Sequence record: PP920554.1
Reading direction: 5' to 3' (one strand)
From: Escherichia phage SM_S24
DNA: 43,039 nucleotides
Shown piece by piece: positions 5,632 through 35,626 of the stretch. The notes beneath the pieces are model-generated. The model was given only the letters and a program-made list of their open reading frames with translations. It was not told where the DNA came from and searched no databases. The translations under genes were made by a program, and so were the position numbers. Position 1 is the first letter of the stretch. Each line of letters starts with the position of its first letter.

Positions 5632-5721
5632 GCTAATTTTGCGATTATTTTTATCGCTGATAATATTAGAAGCGTGAAGTCGAGCGGGTGGCCTGCTCTG
5701 CCACAATCCCAGGGGGATAGC

Positions 5722-6426
5722 ATGAAACTTACTAAAGCAGAATATGACGCGTTGCCGGAAGGTATGAAGGCGCTTTTTGTTGCCGATGGCGACGGGTATA
5801 AATCAACATTCATGACCGCCGAAGAAGTACAGGCGGAGATCAAGGGTCTGAAAGACAACAACGCTAAGCTGGTTAGCGAGAAGAAAGCAGAAGCTGAACG
5901 CCGCGCCGAAGCCGAGCGCCTTGCGAAAGAGAAAGAGGAAGCCGCCGCGCGCAAAAATGGCGACCTCGAAGCGATCGATAAGTCCTGGAAAGATAAGTTT
6001 GCAAAACACGAAGCAGACACATCGGGAAAAATCGAAGCCTACCGCAAGCAGATCCACGATCTCACCATCGGCAGCGCTGCCAAAGACCTGGCATCGAAGC
6101 TGTTCGGTAAGAATGCGGGCATCATGCAACGTCACGTTATGGACCGCCTGACGCTGGAAGACGGCGAAGACGGCAGCTTGAAAGTGCGTGTATTGCAGGA
6201 TGGCAAACCGTCCGCGCTGACTATGGAAGAGCTTGAAAAAGAGTTCCGTAATAACGCCGATTTTGCATCCGTCCTGGCTGGCACGCCAGCCGGTGGCGCA
6301 CCTAGCAAACCGACGCAGGTTGTCGAAGATGTGAAGTCGAAAATCACTATGGGCCACAGCTTCGGTATCACTGACCTTACGAAACAGGCAGGTGAAATCA
6401 TCGCTAAGATGGGCGACGACGAGTAA
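5722..6426 (+). CDS. scaffolding protein
   Basis: 234 aa from ATG 5722 (RBS AGGGGG); charged Ala/Glu/Lys-rich helical sequence (EKKAEAERRAEAERLAKEKEEAAARK); directly upstream of the major capsid gene. Confidence 0.6.
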   Translation: MKLTKAEYDALPEGMKALFVADGDGYKSTFMTAEEVQAEIKGLKDNNAKLVSEKKAEAERRAEAERLAKEKEEAAARKNGDLEAIDKSWKDKFAKHEADTSGKIEAYRKQIHDLTIGSAAKDLASKLFGKNAGIMQRHVMDRLTLEDGEDGSLKVRVLQDGKPSALTMEELEKEFRNNADFASVLAGTPAGGAPSKPTQVVEDVKSKITMGHSFGITDLTKQAGEIIAKMGDDE

Positions 6427-21729: not shown

Positions 21730-22728
21730 ATGGCAGCGGGTACACTATCCGTAACGAATAACAGCAAGGCGGTTGTCGGGGTCGGCACAACGTTTACGGC
21801 GTTTAAAGCGGGCGACTTCTTAACGCTGGTGGTGGGTCAAGTCCCCTACACCGTAGCGATCGCGTCCATTGAAAGCGAAACCGCGCTTACGCTGGTGTTA
21901 CCGTTCGACGGCCCAACGGCAACCGGCCTAGCGTGGGATGGCGTTAAGCGCGATACCATGTCACTGGCAACGATGGGCGTTACCGTACAGGCACAAAAAG
22001 CATTGCGCTTGATGATTGCAGATGAAAACAACTGGCGTGCCATCTTCGGCGACGCTGAAGAAATCACCGTGACGTTGCCTAACGGGCAGGTAATGCAGGG
22101 TATGTCATGGGGCTACCTATCGCAGTTGATGAAACAGATCGACCCAGTGGAGATGCGCGACCTGCAACAACAAGCCGCCGCATCGGAAGCAGCCGCGCAG
22201 GGATACCGGAACGAGGCCGAACAATTCAAGAATGCGATCGACCCGGCGCTGATCACTGAATGGCGAGACTTTCTGGTTCGGGATTTAAACACAACAGTTG
22301 ATAGTAACGGTTTTATTAAAATTGCGTCCCCTATTGTAAAAATCAAAGGTGACGGAAGCGCCGAGCTAAACGATGAATCCGAAGGGTGCACGGTCACACG
22401 TGTTGAAAAGGGTGTTTACCTTATTTCAGGGTGTCTAGGACTTAACTCTGACGCATCGTGGGGCGGTATTGACGGTGGTTTCGAGATACCCGTGGACATC
22501 AACAAGCAGCCGCTGATATGGATCGATTATAAAGTTTTGTCTGACGGTTCCATTGAGCTGCGGACGTACCACCGCACTTACCAAGAATCGCCAGTTTTCG
22601 CAAGGAATATTATTGAGGGAATAAACGACGGCGACCCTATTGACATCCCACCGGGTACTTATGTTTCGGTGCGTGTTGAAATGCCATCGTCTGATACGCA
22701 AGCCACAGTCCCTCTATACGGCGCGTAG
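21730..22728 (+). CDS. tail fiber / receptor-binding protein (putative)
   Basis: 332 aa, RBS AAGAGG; N-terminal GTLSVTNNSKAVVGVGTTFTAF fiber-type motif; last rightward structural gene, followed by a bidirectional terminator. Confidence 0.5.
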   Translation: MAAGTLSVTNNSKAVVGVGTTFTAFKAGDFLTLVVGQVPYTVAIASIESETALTLVLPFDGPTATGLAWDGVKRDTMSLATMGVTVQAQKALRLMIADENNWRAIFGDAEEITVTLPNGQVMQGMSWGYLSQLMKQIDPVEMRDLQQQAAASEAAAQGYRNEAEQFKNAIDPALITEWRDFLVRDLNTTVDSNGFIKIASPIVKIKGDGSAELNDESEGCTVTRVEKGVYLISGCLGLNSDASWGGIDGGFEIPVDINKQPLIWIDYKVLSDGSIELRTYHRTYQESPVFARNIIEGINDGDPIDIPPGTYVSVRVEMPSSDTQATVPLYGA

Positions 22729-22738
22729 CAGAGGAGAC

Positions 22739-22760
22739 GGGGCCGTATGGCCCCTTTTTT
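22739..22760. terminator. bidirectional intrinsic terminator between structural and leftward modules
   Basis: GGGGCC-GTAT-GGCCCC followed by TTTTTT; convergent gene ends on both sides. Confidence 0.65.
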
Positions 22761-23334
22761 AGTTTGAGTTTTCCCAGTCCATTTTGCGCCGCACTAGCGG
22801 GCTTTCGTAATACTCCTTTCCCTCCACTTCCACCAGGGGCCAGTCGTTCACAATCACGTATGGTTCTGCGATATCCTCAATAACGCCATGCGCGCTGTGC
22901 TGACAGAACGTTACCCCCACCAGGATAACCCCGGCAACGCGACGAGTGAGATACTCGCGAGCGCAACGGGCCTCGACCAGTCCTCGACGTATGCCGCTGG
23001 TGGCCTTAACCTCGTAGGTCCAGACGGCATCGATCACATGTTCGCGGAAGTCGGGACCGGATTTTACCTTGCGCTTGCCGACCATGATAATATCGCCGCG
23101 GTCGATAGTGTTAGCGCTAAACAGGCCGGTACGCATGAGTAAGCCTTGCGGGATACAGCTACGCCCACCCGTCTGCCCTTCGAGGTACATGCCTGCAAAC
23201 ATTTCGCCCAGCACACCAACCAGTCGGCTTTGCTTGCACGCGTCAGACTTTAAGCGCCACTGATCAAACTCGATGCTTGCTATCATTGCCGCCAGGTGGA
23301 ATTGTTTACCAGATATTTCATATTCGCCGTACAT
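22759..23334 (-). CDS. hypothetical protein (possible PD-(D/E)XK-like nuclease fold)
   Basis: 191 aa, ATG with RBS GAGGA; D(IIMV)...E-V-K arrangement (RGDIIMVGKRK...AVWTYEVK) compatible with a PD-(D/E)XK core but weak. Confidence 0.4.
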   Translation of the reverse strand: MYGEYEISGKQFHLAAMIASIEFDQWRLKSDACKQSRLVGVLGEMFAGMYLEGQTGGRSCIPQGLLMRTGLFSANTIDRGDIIMVGKRKVKSGPDFREHVIDAVWTYEVKATSGIRRGLVEARCAREYLTRRVAGVILVGVTFCQHSAHGVIEDIAEPYVIVNDWPLVEVEGKEYYESPLVRRKMDWENSN

Positions 23335-23376
23335 CGTGTGGTCCTCATTGATGCGGGCCGAAGCCCGCGATTAGAA

Positions 23377-23898
23377 TTATTTAAGTGCGCCAGTCACCAG
23401 TGTTTTTTCCATGTTGCGGAAGTCTTCCGGCGTCATGAGGATTTTGGACCCGTCTTCGCCAGTTAGAACGACCATAGGCTGGACTTCTTGATCTGCAATG
23501 CCGAAATTGGCGGCTTTAACCATCTTGCCAGCCGATGCCGAAGGATGCCACGTACCTGCGGTGGCGATGGGCCAACCTTTAAGGCTGTCGTATTGCGCTG
23601 CCGTTGTATCGACCTGAATCTCGTCGTGAACGGTCATGTGGGATTCGCCCAGCAAGGCCGCATACGCTACCAGGTCGACGATATTGTCTTCCTGGTGCTT
23701 ACGGTGCTGGCGCACCAGCTTCAGGCAGATCAAGAAGGTCCAGGCTTCTTGCTCGGTAAGGTCACGACCGGTAAGCGCGTTAAACACGGCGGCAATTTGT
23801 TTCGCGCTGCGTTCCTCTTTCGCGTTGTCATAGCCGTTTTCTTTTCCGCGCTGTTCCATAGTGGTGGCGGCGTTTTTGCAGTATTCGTATGCTTTCAT
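23377..23898 (-). CDS. hypothetical protein
   Basis: 173 aa, RBS AGGA; promoter-like boxes and a 5' UTR hairpin upstream; no motif recognised. Confidence 0.45.
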   Translation of the reverse strand: MKAYEYCKNAATTMEQRGKENGYDNAKEERSAKQIAAVFNALTGRDLTEQEAWTFLICLKLVRQHRKHQEDNIVDLVAYAALLGESHMTVHDEIQVDTTAAQYDSLKGWPIATAGTWHPSASAGKMVKAANFGIADQEVQPMVVLTGEDGSKILMTPEDFRNMEKTLVTGALK

Positions 23899-23944
23899 GA
23901 TGTGGTCCTTTTTCGGGGAGGCCGTATTGCCTCCCGACGCGTTA

Positions 23945-23974
23945 ACTATAGTGCAACCAACCTATTGGTTGCAA
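23945..23974 (-). promoter_or_regulatory. sigma70-like promoter with inverted-repeat operator
   Basis: minus strand TTGCAA-18 nt-TATAGT; spacer holds palindrome TGCAACCAA-CCTA-TTGGTTGCA; a 5' UTR hairpin follows. Confidence 0.45.
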
Positions 23975-24432
23975 GTAAATTTTGCAACGTTTATTGCGTA
24001 AATTTTCGGGACCAAATCGCTGCACGCCCGACGAATTGCCGCGATGTTCTTCTCGCAGTCCTCAATGATGACCAGTTCAGACACGTCCGCGTAGCAGACC
24101 ATTTTGAACACGGCGCACGCCTTAAACTCTGGCGGCGGGGTGTCGTCCAGCATGTGGCGCATGAATAACCGGCCTACAGGGAAGACTTCCAGTTGTTTAG
24201 CGGTGGTGTCCCAACATTCTCGCTGCCGGTTGGTCAGATACGCGATCTCGAAGCCTTGCTCTTTATACATGCGCAGTAGCGGCAGCATATCCATGTTCAG
24301 GTCTTCGCGGACGTGCGCCTTGTGCCACTTCGCCCAAAAGGTGGATTTAGTTTTTATGCCAGGCACCAGATCGGCACGCGCATCGCTTGAGCCGTTAATA
24401 ACGCCATCCAAATCGCAAATCAGTAATTTCAT
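23962..24432 (-). CDS. HAD-superfamily phosphatase-like protein
   Basis: 156 aa; N-terminal LICDLDGVI matches HAD motif I (DxDG), downstream Thr (AYLTNR) plausible motif II. Confidence 0.5.
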   Translation of the reverse strand: MKLLICDLDGVINGSSDARADLVPGIKTKSTFWAKWHKAHVREDLNMDMLPLLRMYKEQGFEIAYLTNRQRECWDTTAKQLEVFPVGRLFMRHMLDDTPPPEFKACAVFKMVCYADVSELVIIEDCEKNIAAIRRACSDLVPKIYAINVAKFTCNQ

Positions 24433-24653
24433 TTTAAGCTCTCAATAAGTGTCTGTCGGGCGCTTCGCGCAGTAAAGGAGTTGCATACGAAATGGCAACG
24501 CCGAGTTATGACAAGCCAACCGGTGAGGTCAAGGCCCATGATGCGTCCGGGATGGGACGCGCGCACCACATGATTGCGGCGTGGGTCGATGCAGAAGTCT
24601 TTTTGCATTTGGTCTACTACCGCGGGGTCGCGGTCAACGATTAAGATATTCAT
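24429..24653 (-). CDS. hypothetical small protein
   Basis: about 74 aa from ATG 24653 (track ORF begins at a GTG); ATGA coupling to the downstream HAD gene. Confidence 0.3.
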   Translation of the reverse strand: MNILIVDRDPAVVDQMQKDFCIDPRRNHVVRASHPGRIMGLDLTGWLVITRRCHFVCNSFTARSARQTLIESLK

Positions 24654-25119
24654 GTAGCTCACTCTCGCTCATTATTTCAATTTGTGCGCTGCCGCATGGC
24701 GGCGCTTCGTCAAATATTATCAATTGCTGGCACTTGTTATTGCTCGGCCCGACTTCACCGGTTACAGCATGTATGAATCGGATCCGCCAGTCCAGAAGAA
24801 TTATCAGGTTTGCAGTCTTCCTGGCCAGCTTCGCCCACTTCGTCGACGTGTCCTGATTCAGTAGCATGACCGTCCGGCGTCCGTGCGCTGCGCACTCTAC
24901 CCACGGCAGCGGATCGGAATACGGCGGATTGCACCACTTCCACCCTTTCAACTCGGACCAGTCCACATCAAGCGCGCTGTGTTCCGCCGTGAAGTAACGT
25001 GGTAGCAGATGATTGGTGTCGCTTGCCGCCATATCGTAACGGAATCGGTATTTCTGACGAAGCGGTTTAAATAAAGCTGGCGGCGTGCGCCAGCTATCTT
25101 TTTGCTCATTCTCCGTCAT
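24634..25119 (-). CDS. DNA N6-adenine methyltransferase (phage Dam-like)
   Basis: 161 aa; WRTPP near the N-terminus, DMAASD and catalytic CNPPY motifs typical of small phage N6-adenine methyltransferases. Confidence 0.75.
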   Translation of the reverse strand: MTENEQKDSWRTPPALFKPLRQKYRFRYDMAASDTNHLLPRYFTAEHSALDVDWSELKGWKWCNPPYSDPLPWVECAAHGRRTVMLLNQDTSTKWAKLARKTANLIILLDWRIRFIHAVTGEVGPSNNKCQQLIIFDEAPPCGSAQIEIMSESELHEYLNR

Positions 25120-25564
25120 AGTCGGGATCTATCGCATACAGGGCGGTTTTCTTGCCACTGGATAGCACGCGTTGGACTCGGGATAGCTCCGCCCTACTGA
25201 GCGGTCGGCTATCGGAATAGTAGCTGCCGTTTGCACGCCACGCTATACGCACCAGTCCTTTCCGCGGGATCGAAGACTGGCTGCCCTTCGGACGGACGTA
25301 CTCCTCGGCCAGTTTGCAATGCTCGCGCAGACCTTCGGCAGTGATGCGGTTTAGCGCGACGGTGGTTGTGTACCCGGTGCGCTGCATAATACCCATCAAC
25401 TCATACAGCAGTTCGAAGCGCTCCTCTAACTCCTTGCGCATCTTTTCCTCGCCTTCATAGCTCGCCATGTAGGTATCCGCCAGCGCGTTCGCCCGTTCGA
25501 CCTGTTCGCGGGCTTCGAGGCATTGCGCGGCCCAGTAATTTTTCTCTTCTTGTAAAATTTTCAT
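25106..25564 (-). CDS. hypothetical protein
   Basis: 152 aa, RBS GGAGA; first gene of a leftward operon downstream of paired TGCAACCAAT boxes. Confidence 0.4.
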   Translation of the reverse strand: MKILQEEKNYWAAQCLEAREQVERANALADTYMASYEGEEKMRKELEERFELLYELMGIMQRTGYTTTVALNRITAEGLREHCKLAEEYVRPKGSQSSIPRKGLVRIAWRANGSYYSDSRPLSRAELSRVQRVLSSGKKTALYAIDPDYDGE

Positions 25565-25645
25565 CGTGTTGTCTCCAGGTATTAAAAAAGGCGTCCAAAC
25601 CGGACACCCTTAAGATAATGCAACCAATATGATTATGCAACCAAT

Positions 25646-25969
25646 TTACGAATAAAAATTTGGGTCGCGTGCAACGTCTACTAGATACAGGTTACTCATG
25701 CGATTGCCGTAGTGCCCCGGTGTGCGCTGGCGGCACACAACGGCGAAGCCTGGTGGAATTGTATTGCCCGTCTCGATAATCCACGCCACGCGTGCGCCAG
25801 ACAGCGTCTTGCCGTTGTATTCGATGCGCGTGCCACCATCGGCAGTGTTAAGGTTGCCAATCTTACATCCTGTGGACTTCAGGCGAATGACACCGGTCTT
25901 GCTGTCGTAGGAAAAAAGCTGATTGGTCATTGCCACTGAAAAGTCGATTGCGTCGAATGCAGTATTCAT
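25646..25969 (-). CDS. hypothetical protein
   Basis: 107 aa, ATGA coupling with the upstream gene; faint resemblance to HNH_3/NUMOD-type DNA-binding proteins but no catalytic His seen. Confidence 0.4.
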   Translation of the reverse strand: MNTAFDAIDFSVAMTNQLFSYDSKTGVIRLKSTGCKIGNLNTADGGTRIEYNGKTLSGARVAWIIETGNTIPPGFAVVCRQRTPGHYGNRMSNLYLVDVARDPNFYS

Positions 25970-26661
25970 TTTAAATTTTCCTCGTTAACCGCTATCGCGA
26001 AGCCGCGCGGGGTGAGTGAGCGGATTAATTTTGTACGAGCGGATTTACCACCGAGGCGACTATACTGCTTCGAGTACCCTTTTTCAACGAAAACAGGTTT
26101 CTTCTCTGGCATACGGAAGCCGTTTCCAGTCCATAAGCAGGTCAGCTTCGGATATGAATCGCGGGCGTTGATGTATTCAGGGAACAACGGATGTACGTCA
26201 TCCTCCGGCAGATATCCCCCATACTCCCACGGGTCGAACGAGTGATCAGGCTTGCGCCACTGGGTGGAAAGCACACTGCGCGGATTCTCAATCATATATG
26301 GCACTTCGAAGAAGTCACCCAGGTAAGCGGCGATCTTCGCGGTTCGCACCGCCTTAAGCTGAAAGGCGGGGTCTTTTGCACGCTTGCGCGGGAAAGCTGG
26401 CGCGCCGCTCACTGCCAGATCCGTACACGGAGGGAACGCATAGATTATATCCGGCGTACCGAAATCGCCATTCATCGCGCGGTCCACGAAGTCCAGGTCG
26501 ATAAACTCATTGCGATACCGTATTCCGCGACCATAAATCCGGTAGTCAAGGTACGACCCGTGATCGGCTTCGGAGTAGTTAAAACAGTAGCACTTATGCC
26601 CCATCTCGGCAGCACGCTCAATCATCAAGCCGCTGCCGTCAAACAATGACCAGATTATCAT
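25966..26661 (-). CDS. DNA cytosine-5 methyltransferase-like protein (short)
   Basis: 231 aa; SLFDGSG (motif I-like FxGxG), AFPPCTD (motif IV-like Pro-Cys), MIENP (motif VI-like ENV); unusually short for a complete C5 enzyme. Confidence 0.45.
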   Translation of the reverse strand: MIIWSLFDGSGLMIERAAEMGHKCYCFNYSEADHGSYLDYRIYGRGIRYRNEFIDLDFVDRAMNGDFGTPDIIYAFPPCTDLAVSGAPAFPRKRAKDPAFQLKAVRTAKIAAYLGDFFEVPYMIENPRSVLSTQWRKPDHSFDPWEYGGYLPEDDVHPLFPEYINARDSYPKLTCLWTGNGFRMPEKKPVFVEKGYSKQYSRLGGKSARTKLIRSLTPRGFAIAVNEENLK

Positions 26662-28082
26662 TTGCGCGCCTTCTTAGCTTTCATGTATTCCATCAAGTCG
26701 TCCTGAATGTCTCGCTTACTGTCGCGACGCTCGGCGACCAATTCGTCCAGTGTCCCGCGAGCCTGGATAATGTAGACGAATACTGGTCGAGGGTGTCCGG
26801 CTTGCATCTGGCGAACCGGCCCGATACGTTCAACGATCTGCGAAAAGTGTTCAAAGTTCCAGGTGTCGGAGAAGATTGCCAGGTGATGACCGCCGTCCTG
26901 CAAGTTAAGGCCGTGGCCCGCCGATGCCGGGTGTGCAAACATGATGGGGATCTCGCCCCTGTTCCATGCTTCCATATCCTTATTGCCCTGCTTACCTTTA
27001 CCCAACGCAACGCCGTGCGGGAATTTCTTCTTGAGACGTGCCAGATCATGCTTGTACTGGTAGGCAACGAGCAACGGTGCGCCGTTCAACTCCTCCACGA
27101 TACTTTCCAGCGCGTCCAGTTTAGCGTCGTGAATTTTCACCCATTCGTCGGTGCGCTCGCCGTCTTCGTCGACCTTATACACGGCCCCGGAAGCAAGCTG
27201 AAGGCACTTAATAGTCTTCGAAGCAGCGTTCGCCGCCTCCACCGTTCCGCTTTCCAGTTCGGCAAATAGCTCCGCTTCGAATTGGTCATAAATCTTGCGG
27301 GCTTTTTTCGGCAGGTCCACAACAACCGGCGTATAGATTGGCTTGTCACACCCGAAGTATTCAGCCGCATCAACGGTTAGCGACACGTCGGACAGTCGTT
27401 GTTGTATTTCTTTCTCGGAGTTCTTAAGCGGGGCGTGCTGCATCGTGAAGCTGCCAGGCTTAACAGGCTTGCTAATAAACCAGCGGTCCGTGAACGCCTT
27501 ATAGCTACTGCCGAGACGTTCGCCGCCGTCGACAAACCACGTCTGACCCCATAGGTCTTTCAGCCCGTTCGGTGCGGGTGTGCCAGTCAGGTTAATCCAG
27601 CGCTTGACGTGCTTATGTGCAATCGCTGCCAGCGCACGGGCGCGCTTACTTCCCTGCTTGCTTCTATAGCCTTTCAGCTTAGTGGATTCATCGGCAACAA
27701 CGACCGTAAAGGGCCACTCGTCGCCGCAATACTCTACAAGCCACTCAACCACATCATAGTTAACACAAACCACGTTAGCGTCGCTCTCAAGCGCAGCGAT
27801 GCGGTCCTTCTCTGGTCCGGTGCCGTCTACTACCAGCAGGGCAGGGAAGCGCCATTTTTCTTGCTCCGGAGGCCATGTACCGGACGCAACGCGCAGCGGG
27901 GCCAGCACCAGTACGCGGTCCTCCTGGTTGGATAGGATGCCGGTCTGGAACATTTTATTCAGCGCCCACATAGTCGCGCCGGTTTTACCCGACCCCATTG
28001 TCGCCCAAATATTGCAGCGCTTATGCTTGAGGATGAACGCGGTTATCAACTTCTGATATTCGCGACGTCGGAAACGTGCCAT
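26658..28082 (-). CDS. SNF2/DEAD-like helicase
   Basis: 474 aa from ATG 28082; REYQ Q-motif, Walker A ATMGSGKT, DExx box VVADEST; ATGA coupling to the downstream gene. Confidence 0.75.
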   Translation of the reverse strand: MARFRRREYQKLITAFILKHKRCNIWATMGSGKTGATMWALNKMFQTGILSNQEDRVLVLAPLRVASGTWPPEQEKWRFPALLVVDGTGPEKDRIAALESDANVVCVNYDVVEWLVEYCGDEWPFTVVVADESTKLKGYRSKQGSKRARALAAIAHKHVKRWINLTGTPAPNGLKDLWGQTWFVDGGERLGSSYKAFTDRWFISKPVKPGSFTMQHAPLKNSEKEIQQRLSDVSLTVDAAEYFGCDKPIYTPVVVDLPKKARKIYDQFEAELFAELESGTVEAANAASKTIKCLQLASGAVYKVDEDGERTDEWVKIHDAKLDALESIVEELNGAPLLVAYQYKHDLARLKKKFPHGVALGKGKQGNKDMEAWNRGEIPIMFAHPASAGHGLNLQDGGHHLAIFSDTWNFEHFSQIVERIGPVRQMQAGHPRPVFVYIIQARGTLDELVAERRDSKRDIQDDLMEYMKAKKARK

Positions 28083-28086
28083 ATCT

Positions 28087-28305
28087 TTATTCCGCCTTTT
28101 TCCAGACTTCGGTTTCACTGTTCCAGTTCCTTTTTGTAGCGTCGTAGTTGGTGGCGTGTCCGATGTGCACACCCGTCGCCCGGAAGCTCTTAAATTTTTG
28201 CCAGCATACCGTCAACGGCAGCGGGTCATTCATGCCCGCGATAAACCATACTCGATCGCCCGGTTTACATTCGCCCAGCTTGGTGAGTCGGTAATGATCT
28301 TTCAT
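28087..28305 (-). CDS. hypothetical small protein
   Basis: 72 aa from ATG 28305 (RBS GGGAGA, about 7-nt spacer); track ORF starts at TTG 28320. Confidence 0.3.
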   Translation of the reverse strand: MKDHYRLTKLGECKPGDRVWFIAGMNDPLPLTVCWQKFKSFRATGVHIGHATNYDATKRNWNSETEVWKKAE

Positions 28306-28317
28306 CGTCATGTCTCC

Positions 28318-28341
28318 CAAAAATGGCGGGACAAGCCCGCC
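28318..28341 (-). terminator. intra-operon terminator/attenuator (minus strand)
   Basis: GGCGGGCTTGTCCCGCC followed by ATTTTT on the minus strand, overlapping the RBS of the next gene. Confidence 0.45.
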
Positions 28342-28348
28342 GTATTAA

Positions 28349-28522
28349 TTATTTTTGCTCTGCGCGGTAGCGGCGCTGCCGTTCGCGCTCTTTTTTATTG
28401 CGGCACGATTTGCACTCGGCCCGATACCCGTCCGGGCTGCGTGCAGTCTTACCAGTGTATTTATGGAACTGGGATAGCGGTTTAATGCAGCCGCAATTAC
28501 TGCAACGTTTTTCTTCAATCAT
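28349..28522 (-). CDS. zinc-ribbon protein
   Basis: 57 aa from ATG 28522 (RBS GAGGG); two CxxC pairs (CSNCGC...CKSC) and basic C-terminus. Confidence 0.4.
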   Translation of the reverse strand: MIEEKRCSNCGCIKPLSQFHKYTGKTARSPDGYRAECKSCRNKKERERQRRYRAEQK

Positions 28523-28553
28523 CTCTAAAACCCTCGATATTGCTAACCGGCAC

Positions 28554-28582
28554 ACTATACCGCTATGCGACCAATTCAGCAA
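28554..28582 (-). promoter_or_regulatory. sigma70-like promoter for the zinc-ribbon operon
   Basis: minus strand TTGCTG-17 nt-TATAGT with ATTGGTTGC / ATTGGTCGC boxes at the -35 and in the spacer. Confidence 0.4.
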
Positions 28583-28841
28583 CCAATAAATCACAGTCGG
28601 CGATGTTGTCTATAACGCGAACGTCAGCGCCGCGGCGGGCCATCCGCTCATGTTCACGTACCTGGTGCGGCTTCGGTTTTCCTCCTGGGCGCTTCACTTC
28701 AACGAACACTATTTTGCCGTTGATGATGATAATCAGGTCGGGCGCACCTGCGCGCCCCTCCCAGGCCATTTTGCGGCAGAATCCGCCTACCTCTTTCACC
28801 CGTCGCATCAGGTGACTTTGAATCTTGCCTTCTGGTGTCAT
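28563..28841 (-). CDS. VRR-NUC domain nuclease
   Basis: 92 aa from ATG 28841 (TAATG overlap with the polymerase stop); GAPDLIIIINGKIVFVEVKRPGGKPKPHQ matches the VRR-NUC PD-(D/E)XK core. Confidence 0.7.
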   Translation of the reverse strand: MTPEGKIQSHLMRRVKEVGGFCRKMAWEGRAGAPDLIIIINGKIVFVEVKRPGGKPKPHQVREHERMARRGADVRVIDNIADCDLLVAELVA

Positions 28842-31132
28842 TACTTCCTGTACCTGTACATGATGTCGCCTTCGGCGGCAAGCGGGAAGCCTTTCGCCCA
28901 AACAGGCAGGTCGCACATCAGCGCGCATAGCTCCTCGGTCGTGTAGTCGTCAGTATCCGGAACCTCGGTGATCAGTTCATCGTGTACGGACAGTACGATC
29001 TCATACCCCGCGGCTTCAACGCCTGGCATGGACCATGCGAGAATATCGCGGCATAGCGCCTGTACGATGTTTTCCGTCAGTTTGCCGCCGTAGGTATACT
29101 GGAAGCCCCACTGGCGCGTCGTCTGATTCTCGCCCTGGTATTTGATGCGGGTGCTGGTGCGCTTCTTGCCGGTGTCTTCGTCGATCTCGGTCGTGACAGA
29201 CAGCGCGATGCCCGGGTAGCTCATGATGCGCCCTGACGGCAACTCAATTTTCAACCACCACCCTGCGGCGTTCGGGTCGTCGCGCTCCTCGTCGAAGGTT
29301 GGGTCATGCTTCGCCTTCGTGCGAACAATCTTAAGCGCTTTCCTGCCATCCGGGCGAACGTTCGCACCCGCCCAGTATGCTTTGCCCGGATTGCGGATCG
29401 CGCAGAGCACCGCGTCTTCCAGTTCAGCCCAAAATGCTACCGTCTTAGGGTGAGCCTCGCGCCACATACGTTTGATCGCGTCACACGTCAACCACACGTT
29501 TTTCGGCAGTATGTAAGTTGGGCGCTCGTCTTTCTTGCCAGGCTTCGGCGGGCGCTTGGCTTCGTTAATGCGGGCATACTCATAACCACGTTTCGCCGCG
29601 GCCCAAATATGATCGGGGAATGTGCCCTTCATGACGTCCGCCATCGCATACAGGTCGAGGCCCAGGTTTTTAGCAAACTGCAGGAACGCTGCAACACCGC
29701 CACCATAGCCCAACCCCAATTCGCACGCCTTACCAATCTGGCGCAAGTCTTTGCGGTTGGCTTTGATGTATTCCGGGTCGAGGCCAAACATCTTACCGGC
29801 AGTTTCACAATAGATATCGCGACCCGCCCTGAACACCATTAGCGCGGTTTTCTCCCCCGCGATCCAGGCGAGGCCACGCCCTTCCACGTTGGAGTAGTCA
29901 GCTACGACAAACTTCTTACCCTTCGCCGGAATAATGCACCCGCGAACAGTCGATGCCGTTAGCTTCGATATGTCATACGCCCAGTGCGCTGTCCCGCGTA
30001 ACAGGGAGTTGATGCCGTTGGTAAGCATGTGCGACCGCACCCAAAACGCGACGTCGCTCTCGCCTTCACGGCGCTTAATCTTCCCTTCGTGGTCGTCGCT
30101 ATACTCGCCGCGTGCCAGGTTTTGCGGCTGGAAGCCTTTGCCCGCCCAGCGTAGCGTGCGTTTCGCCCCACCATACTGGAGACACCCACGACGGCGACCA
30201 TCTGCAGATAAGCCATTAACGAGCGGATTGTACTTAGTCGATGCCGTTGATGATGCACCGAGGCGCATCTCGATAAGCACTTTGCCCTCGTCGGGGAAGT
30301 CCGGGTCTTCCAGCAGGTCGTTAAGCGTGGATTTCTGCGCGTTGTGTATTGTGAACGCAGGCGCGAGGTCGCGCAGCGCTGGCAGGAAGTCATTGCCGGT
30401 CAGCTTACCGCCAAAGCGCTCCCATGCTTCTTCCTTCAATTCTTCCTTATGCGCCTGTACCGCTTTGATCGCGGCGCGCGCCAGGTCAACGTCCACATAG
30501 AAGCCGCGGTCATTGATCAACTGGTCAATAAGCAGGATTTCGTCTTCCTTCGGCGTGTTACCCCAGTCCGGTATGCGCCAGTAGACTTCCCTCATCGCTA
30601 TAATATCCAGCGCGGCATAGCGCAGGAATTTAGCCCACTCCTCGTGGTGCGTCTCGCGCGTGTAGCGGCGGATTTTGTATGTCTTAGGGGTTGGCTTACA
30701 GAATCGTTTGATCAGCGCCTTGCCCGCCTTATCCTTCGCGTGCTCTGCGTCGACGCCCAACACCTGGCACTGCATATCGAGGCTACCCGGCAGCGCGTGT
30801 CGAAAGGCCATAATCATGGTGTCTTCGATCTGGCCTACCGGCAGGTCAATGCCCCACTTCTCGCGAATAACCAGGCGGTCAAACAGGAGGCCGTTAGCCA
30901 TCACGATTTTTGCTTTCTTGCGGGATACCTGGCGGAGAGCCTTGCGCAGTTCACGCGGCATTGTAGGGGACTCGGTGCAATCCCATGTCTGCACGCGCCC
31001 CTCGTCGATGGCGTAGGTGCAAATCATAATCTCGGTTGTCGGGTGCTCCGCGTAGGCGTATGCGCCAACTTTCTTCAGGTCCACCCCGCTAAATGTCTCG
31101 GTATCGAGAAAAAGGCGTTCGAAGTCTTTCAT
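28841..31132 (-). CDS. DNA polymerase I-like (family A) with 3'-5' exonuclease domain
   Basis: 763 aa; N-terminal exonuclease motif LFLDTETFSG, polymerase motif A-like VVADYSNVEGRGLAWIAGE; RBS GAGGA. Confidence 0.9.
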   Translation of the reverse strand: MKDFERLFLDTETFSGVDLKKVGAYAYAEHPTTEIMICTYAIDEGRVQTWDCTESPTMPRELRKALRQVSRKKAKIVMANGLLFDRLVIREKWGIDLPVGQIEDTMIMAFRHALPGSLDMQCQVLGVDAEHAKDKAGKALIKRFCKPTPKTYKIRRYTRETHHEEWAKFLRYAALDIIAMREVYWRIPDWGNTPKEDEILLIDQLINDRGFYVDVDLARAAIKAVQAHKEELKEEAWERFGGKLTGNDFLPALRDLAPAFTIHNAQKSTLNDLLEDPDFPDEGKVLIEMRLGASSTASTKYNPLVNGLSADGRRRGCLQYGGAKRTLRWAGKGFQPQNLARGEYSDDHEGKIKRREGESDVAFWVRSHMLTNGINSLLRGTAHWAYDISKLTASTVRGCIIPAKGKKFVVADYSNVEGRGLAWIAGEKTALMVFRAGRDIYCETAGKMFGLDPEYIKANRKDLRQIGKACELGLGYGGGVAAFLQFAKNLGLDLYAMADVMKGTFPDHIWAAAKRGYEYARINEAKRPPKPGKKDERPTYILPKNVWLTCDAIKRMWREAHPKTVAFWAELEDAVLCAIRNPGKAYWAGANVRPDGRKALKIVRTKAKHDPTFDEERDDPNAAGWWLKIELPSGRIMSYPGIALSVTTEIDEDTGKKRTSTRIKYQGENQTTRQWGFQYTYGGKLTENIVQALCRDILAWSMPGVEAAGYEIVLSVHDELITEVPDTDDYTTEELCALMCDLPVWAKGFPLAAEGDIMYRYRK

Positions 31133-31299
31133 TGCTTAATCCTCACTACGGCGTCAGCGCTGCCGATCATGGAGAAGATGCCGTCTGACAGGGTGATCTC
31201 TTCGCCGTTGTTGCGAATCTCGGCAACTGTGAAATACTCGCCCAGCAATTTGGACCATACCTGCATTCCGACTTTTACTTCGCTGGCTTTAATACGCAT
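31129..31299 (-). CDS. hypothetical small protein
   Basis: 56 aa (MRIKASEVKVGMQVWSKLLGEYFTVAEIRNNGEEITLSDGIFSMIGSADAVVRIKQ), RBS AGGA, ATGA coupling to the polymerase start; below the 60-aa track cutoff. Confidence 0.35.
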   Translation of the reverse strand: MRIKASEVKVGMQVWSKLLGEYFTVAEIRNNGEEITLSDGIFSMIGSADAVVRIKQ

Positions 31300-31315
31300 T
31301 TTTCATTGTCCTATT

Positions 31316-31339
31316 AAAAAGCCCGCATTAAGCGGGCTT
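31316..31339 (-). terminator. intrinsic terminator after the SSB gene (minus strand)
   Basis: AAGCCCGC-TTAAT-GCGGGCTT followed by TTTTTA on the minus strand. Confidence 0.55.
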
Positions 31340-31357
31340 GAATAGTGGGCTTTGCCC

Positions 31358-32134
31358 TTAACGGCGGCGACGTTTACGTGGCGCTTCGTCTTCGTCCTCA
31401 TCTTCGTCATCGCGTGGCTTACGACGTTTGCGAGGTTTCTCATCTTCGTCTTCGTCGTCGTCATCGCGGCGCTTGGATTTTTTGGACTTGCGCGGCTTGT
31501 CATCTTCATCATCGTCATCACGACGTTTTGACTTCTTAGCCTTGCGCGGTGCTTCGTCTTCGTCGTCGTTGTCCAGGTCTTCATCGGAGCAAGAAGACCC
31601 GCCACCGCCGAAGGCTTCACCGTCATCACGGAATCGCAGACCCAGCAAGCCAGCACCGAGTCCTTTACCGTTGGTATTGTTCCACGCCCAAATATCAAGG
31701 GACACGTTGCAATAACAACCAGAGTAGATCTCCTGGCCTTCAATCTCGTCGCCGTCGATGGTCAGACCTTGTTCAGTCTGCTTCTCGCCGAGTGACGTTT
31801 GAATGATCGGCTGTTTGAACGATTTGGCGTTGATGTACAACATGCCTTCGAATTCTTCGGTTACTTCGTCGCGCTCGTCACCGTCGCGAACTGCGCATTC
31901 CTTAGAATCCTGGGCGTAGTGGCGGTCCATCCACTTATCAGCATTCTTCTCGGATTTCAGCTTGTCGGTGAGCACTGCGCGCGCTGCCGCTTCCACTTTG
32001 TCCACCTGCGGATCTTCTTTATCAAGGAGAATCACTGCACGGTATGCCGGTTTTTGTCCATCCTGTTTAGGGGTATCACGTTCCCAAATTTTAAGGAAAC
32101 ATACGCGCACATTTTTCAGGTTGACTTTAGCCAT
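31358..32134 (-). CDS. T7 gp2.5-like ssDNA-binding protein (DUF2815-like) with alternating acidic/basic repeat tail
   Basis: 258 aa from ATG 32134 (RBS GAGGAA); N-terminus MAKVNLKNVRV typical of gp2.5/DUF2815-type SSBs; C-terminal about 80 aa are four blocks of [D/E]6-9 then [K/R]5-8. Confidence 0.55.
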   Translation of the reverse strand: MAKVNLKNVRVCFLKIWERDTPKQDGQKPAYRAVILLDKEDPQVDKVEAAARAVLTDKLKSEKNADKWMDRHYAQDSKECAVRDGDERDEVTEEFEGMLYINAKSFKQPIIQTSLGEKQTEQGLTIDGDEIEGQEIYSGCYCNVSLDIWAWNNTNGKGLGAGLLGLRFRDDGEAFGGGGSSCSDEDLDNDDEDEAPRKAKKSKRRDDDDEDDKPRKSKKSKRRDDDDEDEDEKPRKRRKPRDDEDEDEDEAPRKRRRR

Positions 32135-32199
32135 TTTCCAATTCCTCATTTTCACATGTATCGGGGTTATTATGAGCCACCCCGTTCGGCTTGGTTGCT

Positions 32200-32228
32200 A
32201 ATCTACTTGGTTGCGCCTAAGCGGTCAA
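32200..32228 (-). promoter_or_regulatory. sigma70-like promoter for the SSB operon
   Basis: minus strand TTGACC-17 nt-TAGATT; GCAACCAAG in the spacer and again just downstream of the -10. Confidence 0.45.
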
Positions 32229-32467
32229 GCATTTTCATTAAAAAGATTTCTGGTAACGTAGTCGGTAGCGTTCTCGATCCAGCTTAATGGCGGGCGGTCG
32301 ATATTCTTCGCCACCCAATCGGCGGCAGCTTCGCTATAACCGTCATCCAGCCAGCGGGTCGGATGGCGAATCATCCACGCCACCATTAACACGCCTTGCA
32401 CGCAATGCAGGATAAAGCCCAGCGCTCCGAGCAAAAACATCAATAAGATTGCGAATACTTTATTCAT
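32225..32467 (-). CDS. small membrane protein (hypothetical)
   Basis: 80 aa with one hydrophobic helix (FAILLMFLLGALGFIL). Confidence 0.35.
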   Translation of the reverse strand: MNKVFAILLMFLLGALGFILHCVQGVLMVAWMIRHPTRWLDDGYSEAAADWVAKNIDRPPLSWIENATDYVTRNLFNENA

Positions 32468-33890
32468 TGCTTAAGTCCTCGTCAGTAGCTTCCGACCACG
32501 CAGGGCGCGGGTCGTCGATTGGTGCTAACACCGGTTTGGCAGGTGCGCGCGTTATTTTATCACACAACTTTGCCCACACTTTCGGCTTCTCGTCCTTCAG
32601 TACCTTCTCGGCATCAGTAGGGCTGAGTAATGTTTCTTTGTACATAACATCGCGCTTGATCCGGGCCTTCGTGAAGATTTCAATAACTTCGCTCTCGTCC
32701 GCCCACTTACGGATCCCTTCCTTACCGGCAACCATCTTGAGGCCCAGCGATTCACCATCACCCGCCATTACAGCCTTAAATACCGCGGACTCGATCGCTT
32801 TGATGTGCTGGCGCATTGCGTCCAGACCTTCATAAGCCTTGCGCAGTTCCGCAGCGCTCATAGCGCCTGGGGCCGCTTCTTTCTTACCGCGCTTCGCACG
32901 TCGTGCCGCCTTCCTGGCTTCGCGGGCCATATTGCGGTCGTGATTGGCGCATTCTTCCTCGGTCGCCACGCTCACGTCGTCGCCCAGGTCTTCGTCGGTT
33001 GCCGTTGGAGGTGTCATCGTGTCGATTGCGGCCTTAGCGCGGGCACTACACTGATCCGCAAATCGACACCACTGGCACGCATCAACGCTGGGCCGGAAGT
33101 CTGCGCGGGTGAGTCCCTTCTTGCCTCGGGAATACGCCTCCAGTGCGGCAATAGCGCGCTTGGATGCAAACTTCGCGAATATCTCCAGGGCTTCTACCGA
33201 AATATCCCACTCCGACGCCCCGCCGCAATACGGCTGGAAGATAACCAGTCGCACGGTTGTAATGTCGTACATAGTTTGCAGCTTGCGCAGCAGTCCGAGC
33301 GCGTACAACATAAGCTGTTTGTTCTCTTTCGCCTCGACCTTATGCCGCCCGGTCTTCAGGTCGCCAACAATCAGCATGTACGTTCCATCGGTCTTTTTCA
33401 TTACCATGACCATATCGGCAGTACCGAACGTTTTAATCCTGTTGCCGTCGATCTCGTAGCCTGAGTGAAGGACGCGGGTCAGATCGGCGCGCATCTCAAG
33501 CTGGACAAACTCCGCCACTTCGAGGAGCGGTCGCCAGTGGTCGATGTACGCGTCGCACTGTTTCACCATGTCGTCGTTGACCAGTACGCCGCCTTTCGGT
33601 GCTTTAGGGTGTGCCTTTACTGGCCCCTTGCCTTCGTTCTCGACGTAGCACCCTTTATACGTCTTCGCGGTTATCAGCTTTTCCCCAGCAATGATGCGGT
33701 TTAGCACGACCTCTGATACAGTGTGCATACTTGTACCGTTAATCGCAGCTTGCCCGGATTCGTTCGGGATATCTTTTTCGACCACCAGGGCGGCAGGGCA
33801 ACCCATCCATTTTTTAGCACCGGACGGTCCGAGTAATGAGTGTTCCGTATTGCTACCGGATTGCGTTTTACGTTTTGGTTTAATCGCCAT
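32460..33890 (-). CDS. Cas4/RecB-like PD-(D/E)XK exonuclease (DUF2800-like)
   Basis: 476 aa; N-terminal HSLLGPSGAKKWMGCP motif and Cys cluster CQWCRFADQC (one N-terminal plus three C-terminal Cys) typical of Cas4-like nucleases; co-located with gp2.5-like SSB and PolA. Confidence 0.7.
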   Translation of the reverse strand: MAIKPKRKTQSGSNTEHSLLGPSGAKKWMGCPAALVVEKDIPNESGQAAINGTSMHTVSEVVLNRIIAGEKLITAKTYKGCYVENEGKGPVKAHPKAPKGGVLVNDDMVKQCDAYIDHWRPLLEVAEFVQLEMRADLTRVLHSGYEIDGNRIKTFGTADMVMVMKKTDGTYMLIVGDLKTGRHKVEAKENKQLMLYALGLLRKLQTMYDITTVRLVIFQPYCGGASEWDISVEALEIFAKFASKRAIAALEAYSRGKKGLTRADFRPSVDACQWCRFADQCSARAKAAIDTMTPPTATDEDLGDDVSVATEEECANHDRNMAREARKAARRAKRGKKEAAPGAMSAAELRKAYEGLDAMRQHIKAIESAVFKAVMAGDGESLGLKMVAGKEGIRKWADESEVIEIFTKARIKRDVMYKETLLSPTDAEKVLKDEKPKVWAKLCDKITRAPAKPVLAPIDDPRPAWSEATDEDLSNE

Positions 33891-34342: not shown

Positions 34343-34370
34343 TAAAAAGAGGCCCGCTAATCTGCGGGCC
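34343..34370 (-). terminator. intrinsic terminator after the acidic repeat protein gene (minus strand)
   Basis: GGCCCGC-AGATTA-GCGGGCC followed by TCTTTTTAG on the minus strand. Confidence 0.6.
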
Positions 34371-34378
34371 GGAATATA

Positions 34379-34894
34379 CTAATCTTCCAGTTCGAAATAG
34401 GTTTCGACGATTTCTTTTAGCTCTTTGTGGAAGTCTTCGACGTCGTCATCTTCCAGCTTGGCGATTGATTTGATCTCGAACGATTCCAGCAGGTCGTCGA
34501 ATTCGTCGATCGCATCGTCGTCATCGCCACCGGCGATAATCGCGGCATACTGTTTGATTTCGTCGCGCATCTCTGCCAGCGGGTCGGCATCTTTCTTACC
34601 TTTGCCTTTCGCCGGTGCTTTCTTAGACTTAGCCGGTTTTTCGTCTTCGGCATCGTCGTCGTCATCTTCTACGACTTCTTTTTTAGCCTTACCTTTCGCC
34701 GGTGCTTTTTTAGATTTAGCCGGTTTTTCGTCTTCAGCTTCATCGTCGTCATCTTCGACAACTTCTTTTTTCGCCTTAGATGGCTTTTTATCTTCCTGCT
34801 TACCAACGGCAGCGCCAACGGTTTCATAATGTTTAGCGATTGTTTCCAGTGCTACTACGCCGCGAGTAATCAGGTTTACGATTTGTTCGAACAT
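34379..34894 (-). CDS. acidic mixed-charge repeat protein (first leftward early gene)
   Basis: 171 aa from ATG 34894 (RBS GGAG); two tandem KPAKSKKAPAKGKAKKEVVEDDDDDAEDE repeats and a strongly acidic C-terminus; own sigma70-like promoter upstream and intrinsic terminator downstream. Confidence 0.5.
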   Translation of the reverse strand: MFEQIVNLITRGVVALETIAKHYETVGAAVGKQEDKKPSKAKKEVVEDDDDEAEDEKPAKSKKAPAKGKAKKEVVEDDDDDAEDEKPAKSKKAPAKGKGKKDADPLAEMRDEIKQYAAIIAGGDDDDAIDEFDDLLESFEIKSIAKLEDDDVEDFHKELKEIVETYFELED

Positions 34895-35090
34895 GGTATA
34901 TCTCCGATTGGTTAAGTTTAGGTGTCGGCAGTTAACTTCGTCGGTGGCCTTAACATATTGCCCGGTTGCGCGTTCTCCCGTTCGGGTAGTGGACCGGGTT
35001 ATATAATCACGGTTGGGAATCCTGACACTTCGATCCGGCCCCTGCGTTGCCCCTCTCCAGTTTGCGTCCTGCATCCTGTCGACGGAGTGA

Positions 35091-35120
35091 ATGATAGATT
35101 GGTTGCAGGATGGGTGTCAA
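35091..35120 (-). promoter_or_regulatory. leftward early promoter (sigma70-like)
   Basis: minus strand TTGACA-18 nt-TATCAT; TGCAACCAAT box inside the spacer. Confidence 0.55.
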
Positions 35121-35131
35121 CAACTAATTTC

Positions 35132-35165
35132 AAAAAAAAAGCGCCGAGGCAAAATGCACCGGCGC
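35132..35165 (-). terminator. intrinsic terminator upstream of the leftward early promoter (minus strand)
   Basis: GCGCCGGTGCATTTTGCCTCGGCGC followed by nine T on the minus strand. Confidence 0.6.
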
Positions 35166-35195
35166 TAACCAATAAGAGACAATGAGACGGGAATT

Positions 35196-35224
35196 ATTAT
35201 TACACGCGTGCGCGCCCGTTTCAA
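35196..35224 (-). promoter_or_regulatory. second leftward promoter-like element upstream of the terminator
   Basis: minus strand TTGAAA-17 nt-AATAAT; predicted start about 58 nt upstream of the 35132-35165 terminator end. Confidence 0.35.
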
Positions 35225-35296: not shown

Positions 35297-35626
35297 ATGA
35301 ATATCAAAGAAGCAATTGAAGTGTTATCTAATGCAATCCGCGGCGAAGCGGGTAAATCCTGGTATTACACAAATGCGGTGGATACTCTGTTATTTGAAGT
35401 GTCCAGATTATCGCGTGCTGAGAAGGAGCTTACCGCGAAGCTGGAATTACTCAACGGTACGGCAGCAAGCAAGCTGCAAAAGCACAATGAAGAAATGGAA
35501 GAATACAAAAAACAGGTTATCCGTCTACGTGAGGAAGGTAAATCCTGGGCGATGATTGCCGAGTTGACCGGAATTAATCAGAGCACAGTGCGCTCCTGGG
35601 TACGCAATAATAAAACTTCTAAGTAA
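35297..35626 (+). CDS. HTH DNA-binding protein (putative transcriptional regulator)
   Basis: 109 aa, RBS AGGAG; C-terminal helix-turn-helix-like segment WAMIAELTGINQSTVRSWV; first rightward gene at the divergent promoter region. Confidence 0.55.
   Translation: MNIKEAIEVLSNAIRGEAGKSWYYTNAVDTLLFEVSRLSRAEKELTAKLELLNGTAASKLQKHNEEMEEYKKQVIRLREEGKSWAMIAELTGINQSTVRSWVRNNKTSK

Follow-up and report, generated by a model that had tools for sequence, protein, structure and literature searches.

In the 43,039-nucleotide stretch of Escherichia phage SM_S24 analysed here (record PP920554.1; the whole stretch is referred to as the window), the 171-amino-acid protein encoded on the minus strand from the ATG at 34894 to the stop at 34379, for which we use the working name X, is associated with the phage's replication/recombination module. 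This module comprises a primase-helicase, a DUF2800/PD-(D/E)XK exonuclease, a gp2.5/Enc34-type single-stranded DNA-binding protein (SSB) and a family-A DNA polymerase (PolA). We propose, with a probability of about 0.4, that X is a non-enzymatic scaffold or adaptor, in other words an accessory protein, of the module, because its synteny is conserved, because it shares charge-block repeats with the SSB, and because an X orthologue and the SSB are detected in the proteome of cells infected with a related phage. The most novel part of the X transcription unit is the structured leader RNA that precedes the coding sequence (CDS), which matches no Rfam family. Below, labels such as L005 and L016 denote phage loci that were compared, and labels such as P0083 and P0136 denote homologous proteins.

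A sequence-only reading of this DNA had described a 171-amino-acid product made from a promoter-to-terminator unit, and this is borne out, with the CDS lying between a promoter at 35120–35091 and an intrinsic terminator at 34370–34351. X has an isoelectric point of 4.47, and its ATG is preceded at a distance of 7 nt by GGAG. The protein belongs to phrog_3127, a family without functional annotation whose profile covers it from end to end (residues 1–171 against positions 1–178 of 178, E=6.8e-54). Its 52 Asp/Glu residues agree with the earlier count, while Lys/Arg number 30 and not 31. The tandem repeat that had been noticed in the gene does exist, with a period of 87 bp (29 amino acids) rather than about 78 bp: Tandem Repeats Finder (TRF) reports 2.2 copies with 88% matches at 34590–34778. 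Read as protein, there are 29-amino-acid units at 34789–34703 and 34702–34616 and a partial unit reaching 34583, amounting to about 2.3–2.4 units, and KPAKSKKAPAKGK occurs at residues 57 and 86.

AlphaFold2 was run on X with two alignments (18 and 29 sequences), both of which gave the same picture: a helix at residues 2–26 (predicted local distance difference test, pLDDT, of about 62), disorder at about 27–104 (pLDDT <50) and a three-helix bundle at 105–167 (pLDDT 90–95). Together with sequence conservation this divides the gene into a conserved N-terminal amphipathic helix (codons 1–31, 34894–34802; alignment A6), a disordered polyampholyte linker holding the repeat (codons 32–104, 34801–34583) and a conserved acidic three-helix bundle (codons 105–171, 34582–34382). 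With 25 acidic and 6 basic residues, the last of these is the very acidic C-terminus that the earlier reading had pointed out. The repeats that it called histone-like belong to a linker that alternates between acidic and basic blocks and is net neutral (24 acidic, 22 basic). Among 106 close homologues, which range from 115 to 179 amino acids (longer entries carry a false N-terminal extension), length differences lie mainly in the linker and its repeat number and both ends are nearly invariant; the repeat is thus the least constrained part of X. Basic blocks are almost absent from some natural variants, such as P0083 (122 amino acids) and P0098 (115 amino acids). In phage jat, a frameshift or a sequencing error has probably divided the X gene into two open reading frames (ORFs; jat_19 and jat_20).

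When 1.84 billion representative proteins were searched exhaustively with a profile of the X C-terminal domain, 43 clusters were recovered, nearly all of them small proteins of about 115–212 amino acids with the domain at the C terminus, behind a variable linker of K/P/A and D/E. This exhaustive search was needed, as a word-indexed search with the C-terminal domain alignment was saturated by low-complexity candidates and returned four trivial hits. Most members begin with a helix of the form M-[LF]-[ED]-K-[FL]-L-A-L-L-E-R-F-V-V-A-H-E-L-I-A, with R11, V13, A15, E17 and A20 unchanged throughout the wider family (alignment A6); the distant members P0106, P0136, P0140 and P0144 have a different N terminus. 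In P0111, P0112 and P0116 the acidic three-helix domain is duplicated in tandem, which fits a modular binding unit.

The gene neighbourhood of X is conserved well beyond Dhillonvirus. In the window, the genes leftward of the control region are, in order, X, small ORFs of 83 and 62 amino acids, the DUF2800/PD-(D/E)XK exonuclease, a further small ORF, the gp2.5-like SSB and the family-A DNA polymerase. Searches with tblastn found relatives of X in 251 phage records, mostly of the Guernseyvirinae (for example Jerseyvirus and Kagunavirus), where phiEap-2 and K1G have the order helicase-primase, X, small ORFs, exonuclease, SSB, PolA. We sampled 36 non-Dhillonvirus viral contigs with an X homologue, at 27–59% identity over the best matched segment. 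The DUF2800 exonuclease lies 0.5–1.8 kb downstream of X on the same strand in 35 of these, the SSB is also present in 34 and PolA also in 33, and a primase-helicase is upstream of X in 35; the module is complete in 33 contigs and cut by contig ends in the other 3. Even the distant metagenomic homologue P0136, which had no tblastn match among isolated phages, is encoded directly upstream of DUF2800, Enc34_ssDNA-bd, DNA_pol_A and SNF2 helicase genes. Since this synteny is conserved, we regard X as a core and fast-evolving member of the replication/recombination module, and not as a lineage-specific early “arms-race” gene.

The second line of evidence comes from the SSB of the same operon, the C-terminal tail of which (31621–31361, minus strand) consists of four acidic/basic units encoded by an 18-amino-acid (54-bp) tandem repeat: ...DDEDEAPRKAKKSKRR DDDDEDDKPRKSKKSKRR DDDDEDEDEKPRKRRKPR DDEDEDEDEAPRKRRRR. 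Each unit has seven to nine D/E residues, then [KA]P[RA]K and a K/R-rich block, as in DDDDEDD-KPRKSKKSKRR. In a block scan of the window proteins, only X and the SSB showed an alternation of acidic and basic blocks. As in X, copy number varies, from 1 to 4 units among the SSB tails of related phages; in the distant relative L065 the tail is purely acidic and resembles that of T7 gp2.5. The lengths of the X linker and the SSB tail are weakly correlated (Spearman 0.44, p=0.03, n=25; 0.59 within Dhillonvirus) by a statistic that ignores phylogeny, and we take this as only suggestive. A common DNA-level origin of the two regions was considered and rejected: all that matches between them is low-complexity runs of GAT/GAC/GAA, which points to convergence or shared constraint rather than recent copying. 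The DUF2800 exonuclease (32460–33890, minus strand) has an insertion at residues of about 295–345, with an acidic and then a basic stretch (TDEDLGDDVSVATEEE...AREARKAARRAKRGKKEA), a weaker echo of these charge blocks that falls below the threshold of the block scan.

Expression data are available for a relative. When E. coli was infected with Dhillonvirus EE09 (25 min, multiplicity of infection 5), only four phage proteins were detected, CDS29, CDS40, CDS56 and CDS61 (PMC10673088). According to the GenBank record, EE09_56 is the X orthologue, in line with the high expression predicted from the sequence, and EE09_61 occupies the position of the gene annotated as a gp2.5-like SSB in Bas84. If the CDS numbers of the paper equal the locus tags, no other non-structural phage proteins were detected as readily as X and the SSB.

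On the scaffold or adaptor reading, X would be produced early and in large amounts, and its working, binding parts would be the two conserved ends, that is, the N-terminal amphipathic helix and the C-terminal acidic bundle. The repeat would act as a flexible tether of alternating acidic and basic blocks, with a length that varies between phages. Its basic blocks may bind the SSB tail, DNA, or both, in an electrostatic and multivalent manner, and the acidic blocks and the acidic C-terminal domain may bind basic DNA-binding surfaces of module proteins. The outcome would be that replication and recombination proteins are concentrated or organised on phage DNA.

Several points weigh against this proposal. 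Synteny speaks for association with the module and not for a mechanism, and both the partners of X and the way in which it would act as a scaffold are what we infer. AlphaFold2 confidence is only moderate for the N-terminal helix, and the prediction covers X alone, not complexes. The fold search is uninformative, three-helix bundles being generic: against viral models, Foldseek returned only uncharacterised phage proteins such as Gp46 of Edwardsiella phage eiAU and a Salmonella phage MB78 protein. The latter is named “13.88 kDa late protein” in UniProt, a poor fit to an exclusively early role. The correlation between X and SSB lengths is, besides being weak, confounded by relatedness, and the proteomic identification depends on equating the CDS numbers of PMC10673088 with GenBank locus tags. 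Searches of sequence resources, for their part, gave little guidance. Pfam at E up to 1 yielded only sub-threshold matches to DUF6669 (E=0.01–0.03) and DUF913, scans of NCBIfam and PHROGs gave X no functional annotation, and a profile search of PDB sequences at E up to 10 found nothing relevant and nothing below E=0.1. Profile searches and structure prediction, the checks that the sequence-only reading had named, therefore linked X to no protein of known function and returned only the helix, the disordered linker and the acidic bundle.

Host-directed inhibitors also occur in recombination modules (lambda gam, T7 5.9, P22 abc), which counts against a scaffold and makes a decoy conceivable. X would then be a Gam/gp5.9/Abc-like protein, possibly dimerised through its N-terminal helix, whose acidic C-terminal bundle mimics DNA and blocks host RecBCD or another end-dependent nuclease, so that linear and rolling-circle phage DNA is protected while the phage exonuclease and annealing protein act. 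The location suits this idea: lambda gam, T7 gene 5.9 and P22 abc2 adjoin their recombination genes, HK022 abc2 is similarly placed next to erf (seen in this analysis), and in every lineage examined the X gene directly precedes those for the exonuclease and the SSB/annealing protein, an adjacency found at all loci with enough flank. So do the acidity of the C-terminal domain (25 D/E, 6 K/R), the sigma70-type promoter, the abundance of the orthologue and the fact that no other credible RecBCD inhibitor is recognisable, the neighbouring “nuclease inhibitor gamma” being a 109-amino-acid helix-turn-helix protein. However, neither Pfam, PDB nor fold searches revealed a sequence or fold match of X to Gam, gp5.9, Abc2, Ocr, ArdA or any DNA mimic, lysine-rich blocks are atypical of such mimics, and a core module gene that is kept across phages with about 30% identity in X is better explained by an intrinsic function than by a host-specific inhibitor. 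We consider the decoy unlikely, though it is the main rival of the scaffold. X is also distinct from two Dhillonvirus proteins that have been characterised by experiment: Ksap1, the KpAvs2 trigger, is a 74-amino-acid protein encoded between methyltransferase and phosphatase genes, and the anti-Tmn protein is ORF35, which has a beta-sheet C-terminal domain.

The absence of any DNA-mimic match also bears on the idea, put forward in the sequence-only reading, that X is an Ocr/ArdA-like anti-restriction protein directed at type I restriction-modification or BREX. An acidic, abundant protein encoded by the first CDS behind a strong promoter is what one would look for, but the elongated helical fold with a B-DNA-like acidic pattern is not seen in X, the repeat is charge-neutral and the gene sits in core replication-module synteny. 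Indirect evidence comes from the BASEL study, which describes Dhillonvirus phages as comparatively sensitive to restriction-modification of types I and II (PMC8594841). The anti-restriction interpretation is thus unsupported, and we regard it as very improbable. The same reading had offered a nucleoid-interacting takeover protein. If X were one, the KPAK/KKAPAKGK blocks would bind DNA in the manner of histone H1, AlgP or the HupB tail and reorganise host or phage DNA. In composition, the blocks rich in lysine, proline and alanine are indeed similar to the H1-like DNA-binding tails of bacteria, and the X orthologue is abundant. Nevertheless, the net-basic K/A/P tract that is conserved as the functional part of such proteins (AlgP, Hc1, the HupB tail) is not found in X: every basic block is flanked by an equally strong acidic one, the basic blocks are the least conserved part and nearly vanish in P0083 and P0098, and what is conserved is the N-terminal helix and the acidic domain. 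DNA binding of this kind appears improbable as the role of X.

We now turn to the RNA that precedes the CDS. The earlier reading described a promoter-to-terminator unit, and the promoter and terminator are indeed there; what it missed is that the roughly 190 nt between the inferred transcription start and the ATG hold a structured leader RNA of about 160 nt (34924–35083, minus strand). Its structure and the covariance model R1 are based on alignment A3, which contains 36 distinct copies. The 5' end of the transcript forms part of the closing helix P1 (35083–35076 with 34931–34924); P2, a short hairpin, has an invariant AGGA loop; and P3 and P4 enclose a three-way junction from which two long arms extend, P5/P6 and Pc/Pa/Pb, the latter mostly ending in a GNRA-type loop. 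The internal loops contain the invariant blocks GGAGAGG, CAACGC, AGUGUCAGGAUUCC, CACU, AGAACGC and CCGACGAAG.

In the model-based alignment, which is fitted to the model and so favours the structure, 92.3% of cells are standard-paired, against 30–44% when the partners are slid by 1–3 columns, and both sides vary in 19 of the 42 pairs; the covariation score is 0.369, compared with no more than 0.059. The compensation can also be seen in the raw sequences, where Pa, Pb, Pc and P1 each have at least four distinct complementary sequence pairs; within Dhillonvirus alone there are the variants ACCCGG...CCGGGC, ACCAGG...CCTGGC and ACCTGG...CCAGGC. Single-sequence folding is no better than for shuffled sequences (z=0.91) and RNAalifold on a MAFFT alignment recovers the structure only in part, which is why it was derived by hand and with the covariance model. 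R1 recovers each copy, with 39 hits at 148–185 bits, and finds nothing in the Dhillonviruses that lack the element (L005, L010, L016, L018). Against Rfam 15 there was no match overlapping 34924–35083 at E up to 5, and six loci from other phage families gave no match at the gathering threshold. None of six conserved sequence strings of the leader was found in any paper of the collection searched, and a keyword search returned nothing relevant among the top results.

The leader is non-coding. Copies from Drexlerviridae have stops in all forward frames, and the sole ATG, located in P2, sets different frames in different lineages, for example in Arya-type copies. This has a practical consequence, in that many GenBank records annotate a version of X with 227–232 amino acids, starting from the ATG equivalent to 35074 (231 amino acids here). 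We reject this longer ORF on three counts: the PHROG profile begins at Met61, past a false extension of 60 codons; ATG 35074 lies inside the leader stretch of about 150 nt that L005, L010, L016 and L018 lack; and this stretch evolves by base-pair compensation and not under codon constraint. The false 60-codon N-terminal extension in those records is the leader RNA. The loci compared for the long annotation were 34895–35074 of the window, L002 at 3380–4063 and L068 at 2880–3578.

By blastn, the leader is found in 171 phage records (173 places), of which about 137 hold full-length copies, essentially all in Dhillonvirus. Other carriers include the Drexlerviridae PHB17, slyngel, JK16, ityhuna, tunus, KMI8 and Motto, as well as Jilinvirus Arya, Murrayvirus Lumpael and the taxonomically unassigned Serratia MQ-4, Alux-21 and BUCT618. 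There is almost always one copy per genome. At the loci examined, the leader occupies intergenic or nearly intergenic sequence in the same sense as the genes beside it, some 10 nt after a sigma70-like promoter sequence; in all copies read, other families included, its first nucleotide lies at about +1 to +3 relative to the promoter-like site. None of 5,426 complete E. coli genomes has the leader. In a set of 185,579 genomes representing bacterial and archaeal species it occurs once, in a metagenome-assembled genome on a contig of phage size (42.8 kb), and 14 metagenomic contigs, most of 39–52 kb, carry it. In every collection searched, it is thus confined to phage-like sequence. A link between leader and X outside Dhillonvirus was looked for and rejected, so the leader is an independent module that happens to sit in the X unit, and its distribution marks it as a horizontally mobile one.

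Within Dhillonvirus the leader may be present or absent. At exactly the position of P1, L005 and L010 (about 2960–2985) have a 12-nt filler, GCATACCGCCCG, and L016 (about 2940–2975) has a plain hairpin, GTCG-AAA-CGAC; the corresponding region of L018 is at about 2935–2975. To judge from these junctions, the leader looks like an insertion into a 5'-terminal stabilising hairpin. The phages that lack it are natural “P1-only” and “deleted” controls, so that the experiment of comparing variants with and without the leader has in effect been set up by nature. In L037 (about 5700–5835, minus strand) and L049, the leader precedes moron-like early genes. The product of one is 105 amino acids long and bears a lipoprotein signal (MKRITAIAITLAAVLGCS); that of another combines a zinc ribbon with a C-terminal half that is hydrophobic and membrane-like. 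A role in superinfection exclusion is conceivable for both genes.

What the leader does is best approached through what follows it. A common downstream gene was sought and rejected; the downstream genes are all unrelated, which suggests that the leader acts on whatever lies behind it, probably in cis by influencing what becomes of the transcript. The start codon follows the leader after 26–33 nt in most copies on the measure used, with a few outliers at 16–52, and this spacer is rich in A and C. The unpaired GGAGAGG resembles a Shine-Dalgarno sequence. We tentatively favour a cis-acting element that combines protection of the 5' end with ribosome loading. A riboswitch-like sensor is unlikely but conceivable. 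Aptamer-like features are present in the form of the junction, invariant loops and covarying helices; no terminator/antiterminator or Shine-Dalgarno-sequestering platform was seen, and the genes downstream are unrelated to each other. An antiterminator that modifies RNA polymerase, as HK022 put does, is equally unlikely. The leader is a promoter-proximal site in an early operon with terminators (that at 34370–34351 follows), but the X terminator and operon are kept in phages without the leader, which makes terminator presence uninformative or even negative for antitermination. Homology to put was rejected, since R1 with filters off reached at most 6.3 bits across HK022 22000–33000 and the architecture differs. 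A terminator conserved regardless of the leader, and the lack of similarity to put, weaken the case for put-like antitermination. A role as a sponge or target for a protein such as CsrA is rather unlikely; the consensus of CsrA sites is GGA in a hairpin loop, and the P2 loop matches it.

Combining the two subjects, one may picture the leader as a new class of phage-specific regulatory RNA, be it a ligand-sensing riboswitch or a binder of RNA polymerase, the 30S subunit or CsrA, that is passed on as a cassette, together with its promoter-like sequence, among virulent siphophages of enterobacteria that are unrelated to each other. It would control the early gene behind it and would have come to lie before X in Dhillonvirus, while X and the charge-patterned SSB tail may scaffold a replication/recombination condensate. 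This combined picture we hold to be possible, if somewhat unlikely in its entirety.

The remaining features of the locus can be described briefly. Almost the whole genome of a Dhillonvirus, a virulent siphophage of E. coli that is HK578/SSL-2009a-like, is contained in the window, and no tRNA or tmRNA genes were found there. Some 175 phage records, nearly all from Escherichia/Shigella Dhillonvirus, match 1.4 kb around the X unit at 80–96% identity. The promoter of X, TTGACA-18-TATCAT as in the sequence-only reading (35120–35091, minus strand; start inferred near 35084), matches 11 of 12 consensus positions. A consensus scan is by itself non-significant (2 sites against 2.2 expected in shuffles); across the genus, the -35 hexamer is invariant and the -10 is only TATCAT, TAATAT or TATTAT (alignment A2). 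Between leader and CDS lies an A/C-rich, G-poor spacer (34923–34895, minus strand) that includes the Shine-Dalgarno GGAG at 34905–34902. The intrinsic terminator, also rightly recognised before, is GGCCCGC-AGATTA-GCGGGCC followed by UCUUUUU on the minus strand, with 7 G-C pairs (consensus scan; 34370–34342 with its U tract), and the ribosome-binding site of the next gene (83 amino acids, ATG 34330) comes directly after it. The terminator scan, too, is non-significant against shuffles when taken alone; the element is conserved across the genus and kept in all relatives, including those without the leader, with the divergent L018 having another stem, GGGCGGC/GCCGCCC, at the unchanged position. 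In close relatives (window versus L003, L005 and L013, about 3530–3550) the loop is found both ways round, as AGATTA or its reverse complement TAATCT, on an unchanged palindromic stem, so that the whole hairpin appears to have been inverted.

Whether the X unit is the first leftward one, as was claimed for it, is debatable, for a second promoter and terminator pair (35224–35132) lies upstream on the same strand. Directly upstream of the X promoter there is a promoter-like site, TTGAAA-17-AATAAT with a TG extension (35224–35196), followed after about 30 nt by a strong intrinsic terminator, GCGCCG...CGGCGC plus T9 (35165–35132). The pair is almost invariant across Dhillonvirus, and some records annotate a small ORF of 36–52 amino acids at 35132–35224. 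It would yield a small RNA of about 58 nt with an unstructured 5' part (UCCCGUCUCAUUGUCUCUUAUUGGUUA), and the palindrome-rich GCGCGCACGCGT in the spacer of the second promoter could be an operator. All of this belongs to a divergent control region, rightward of which are genes for a 109-amino-acid helix-turn-helix protein (35297–35626, plus strand) and a 754-amino-acid primase-helicase. The former is named “DNA recombination nuclease inhibitor gamma”, “transposase” or “resolvase” depending on the GenBank record; Pfam finds only a C-terminal helix-turn-helix (HTH_23, Sigma70_r4_2), and rather than being a Gam protein, the product most likely regulates transcription from the divergent promoters.

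These results suggest that a core component of the replication module found in Dhillonvirus, Guernseyvirinae and related siphophage contigs has gone unrecognised. This component would be non-enzymatic and is apparently abundant, and knowing its role would complete the module's parts list. The pair of disordered charge-block segments, in X and in the SSB tail, offers a concrete and testable lead to the way in which replication may be organised in small phages. Having 19 covarying base pairs, no Rfam family and a distribution across phage families, the leader is a clean candidate for a new cis-regulatory mechanism.

Comparison with known systems places both elements. In its size, its closing P1, its multi-helix junction, its invariant internal loops, its GNRA-type loops and its location in a 5' untranslated region, the leader is like the riboswitch aptamers and structured 5' leaders of Rfam, from which it differs in having no Rfam 15 family match, no evident platform and mutually unrelated downstream genes. 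With putL and putR of HK022 it has in common that it starts within a few nt of the start of an early sigma70-type promoter, heads a long operon with an intrinsic terminator and is indifferent to the downstream gene. The put RNA is about 70 nt long with two stem-loops (PMC9378689), whereas the leader has 160 nt and a three-way junction. X resembles T7 Ocr and ArdA in its low isoelectric point and in its first transcription unit behind a strong host-type promoter; unlike them, it lacks their homology and elongated DNA-mimic fold, confines its acidity to a 67-amino-acid three-helix bundle and is a replication-module gene. It is small, helical, acidic and encoded next to phage exonuclease and annealing genes, as are lambda Gam, T7 gp5.9 and P22/HK022 Abc2, but has a long polyampholyte linker with lysine-rich blocks and no sequence or fold match to them. 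A parallel to the proposed scaffold or adaptor is offered by the acidic tails of T7 gp2.5 and Enc34-type SSBs, which make protein-protein contacts in the replisome. X differs from these in being a separate protein with two conserved structured ends and no oligonucleotide/oligosaccharide-binding (OB) fold, and in that its blocks alternate instead of being purely acidic. Like them, it is non-enzymatic and highly charged, is encoded within a module of gp2.5-type SSB, PolA and primase-helicase, and has acidic segments suited to basic DNA-binding surfaces, and the SSB of this very phage carries the X-like repeat pattern.

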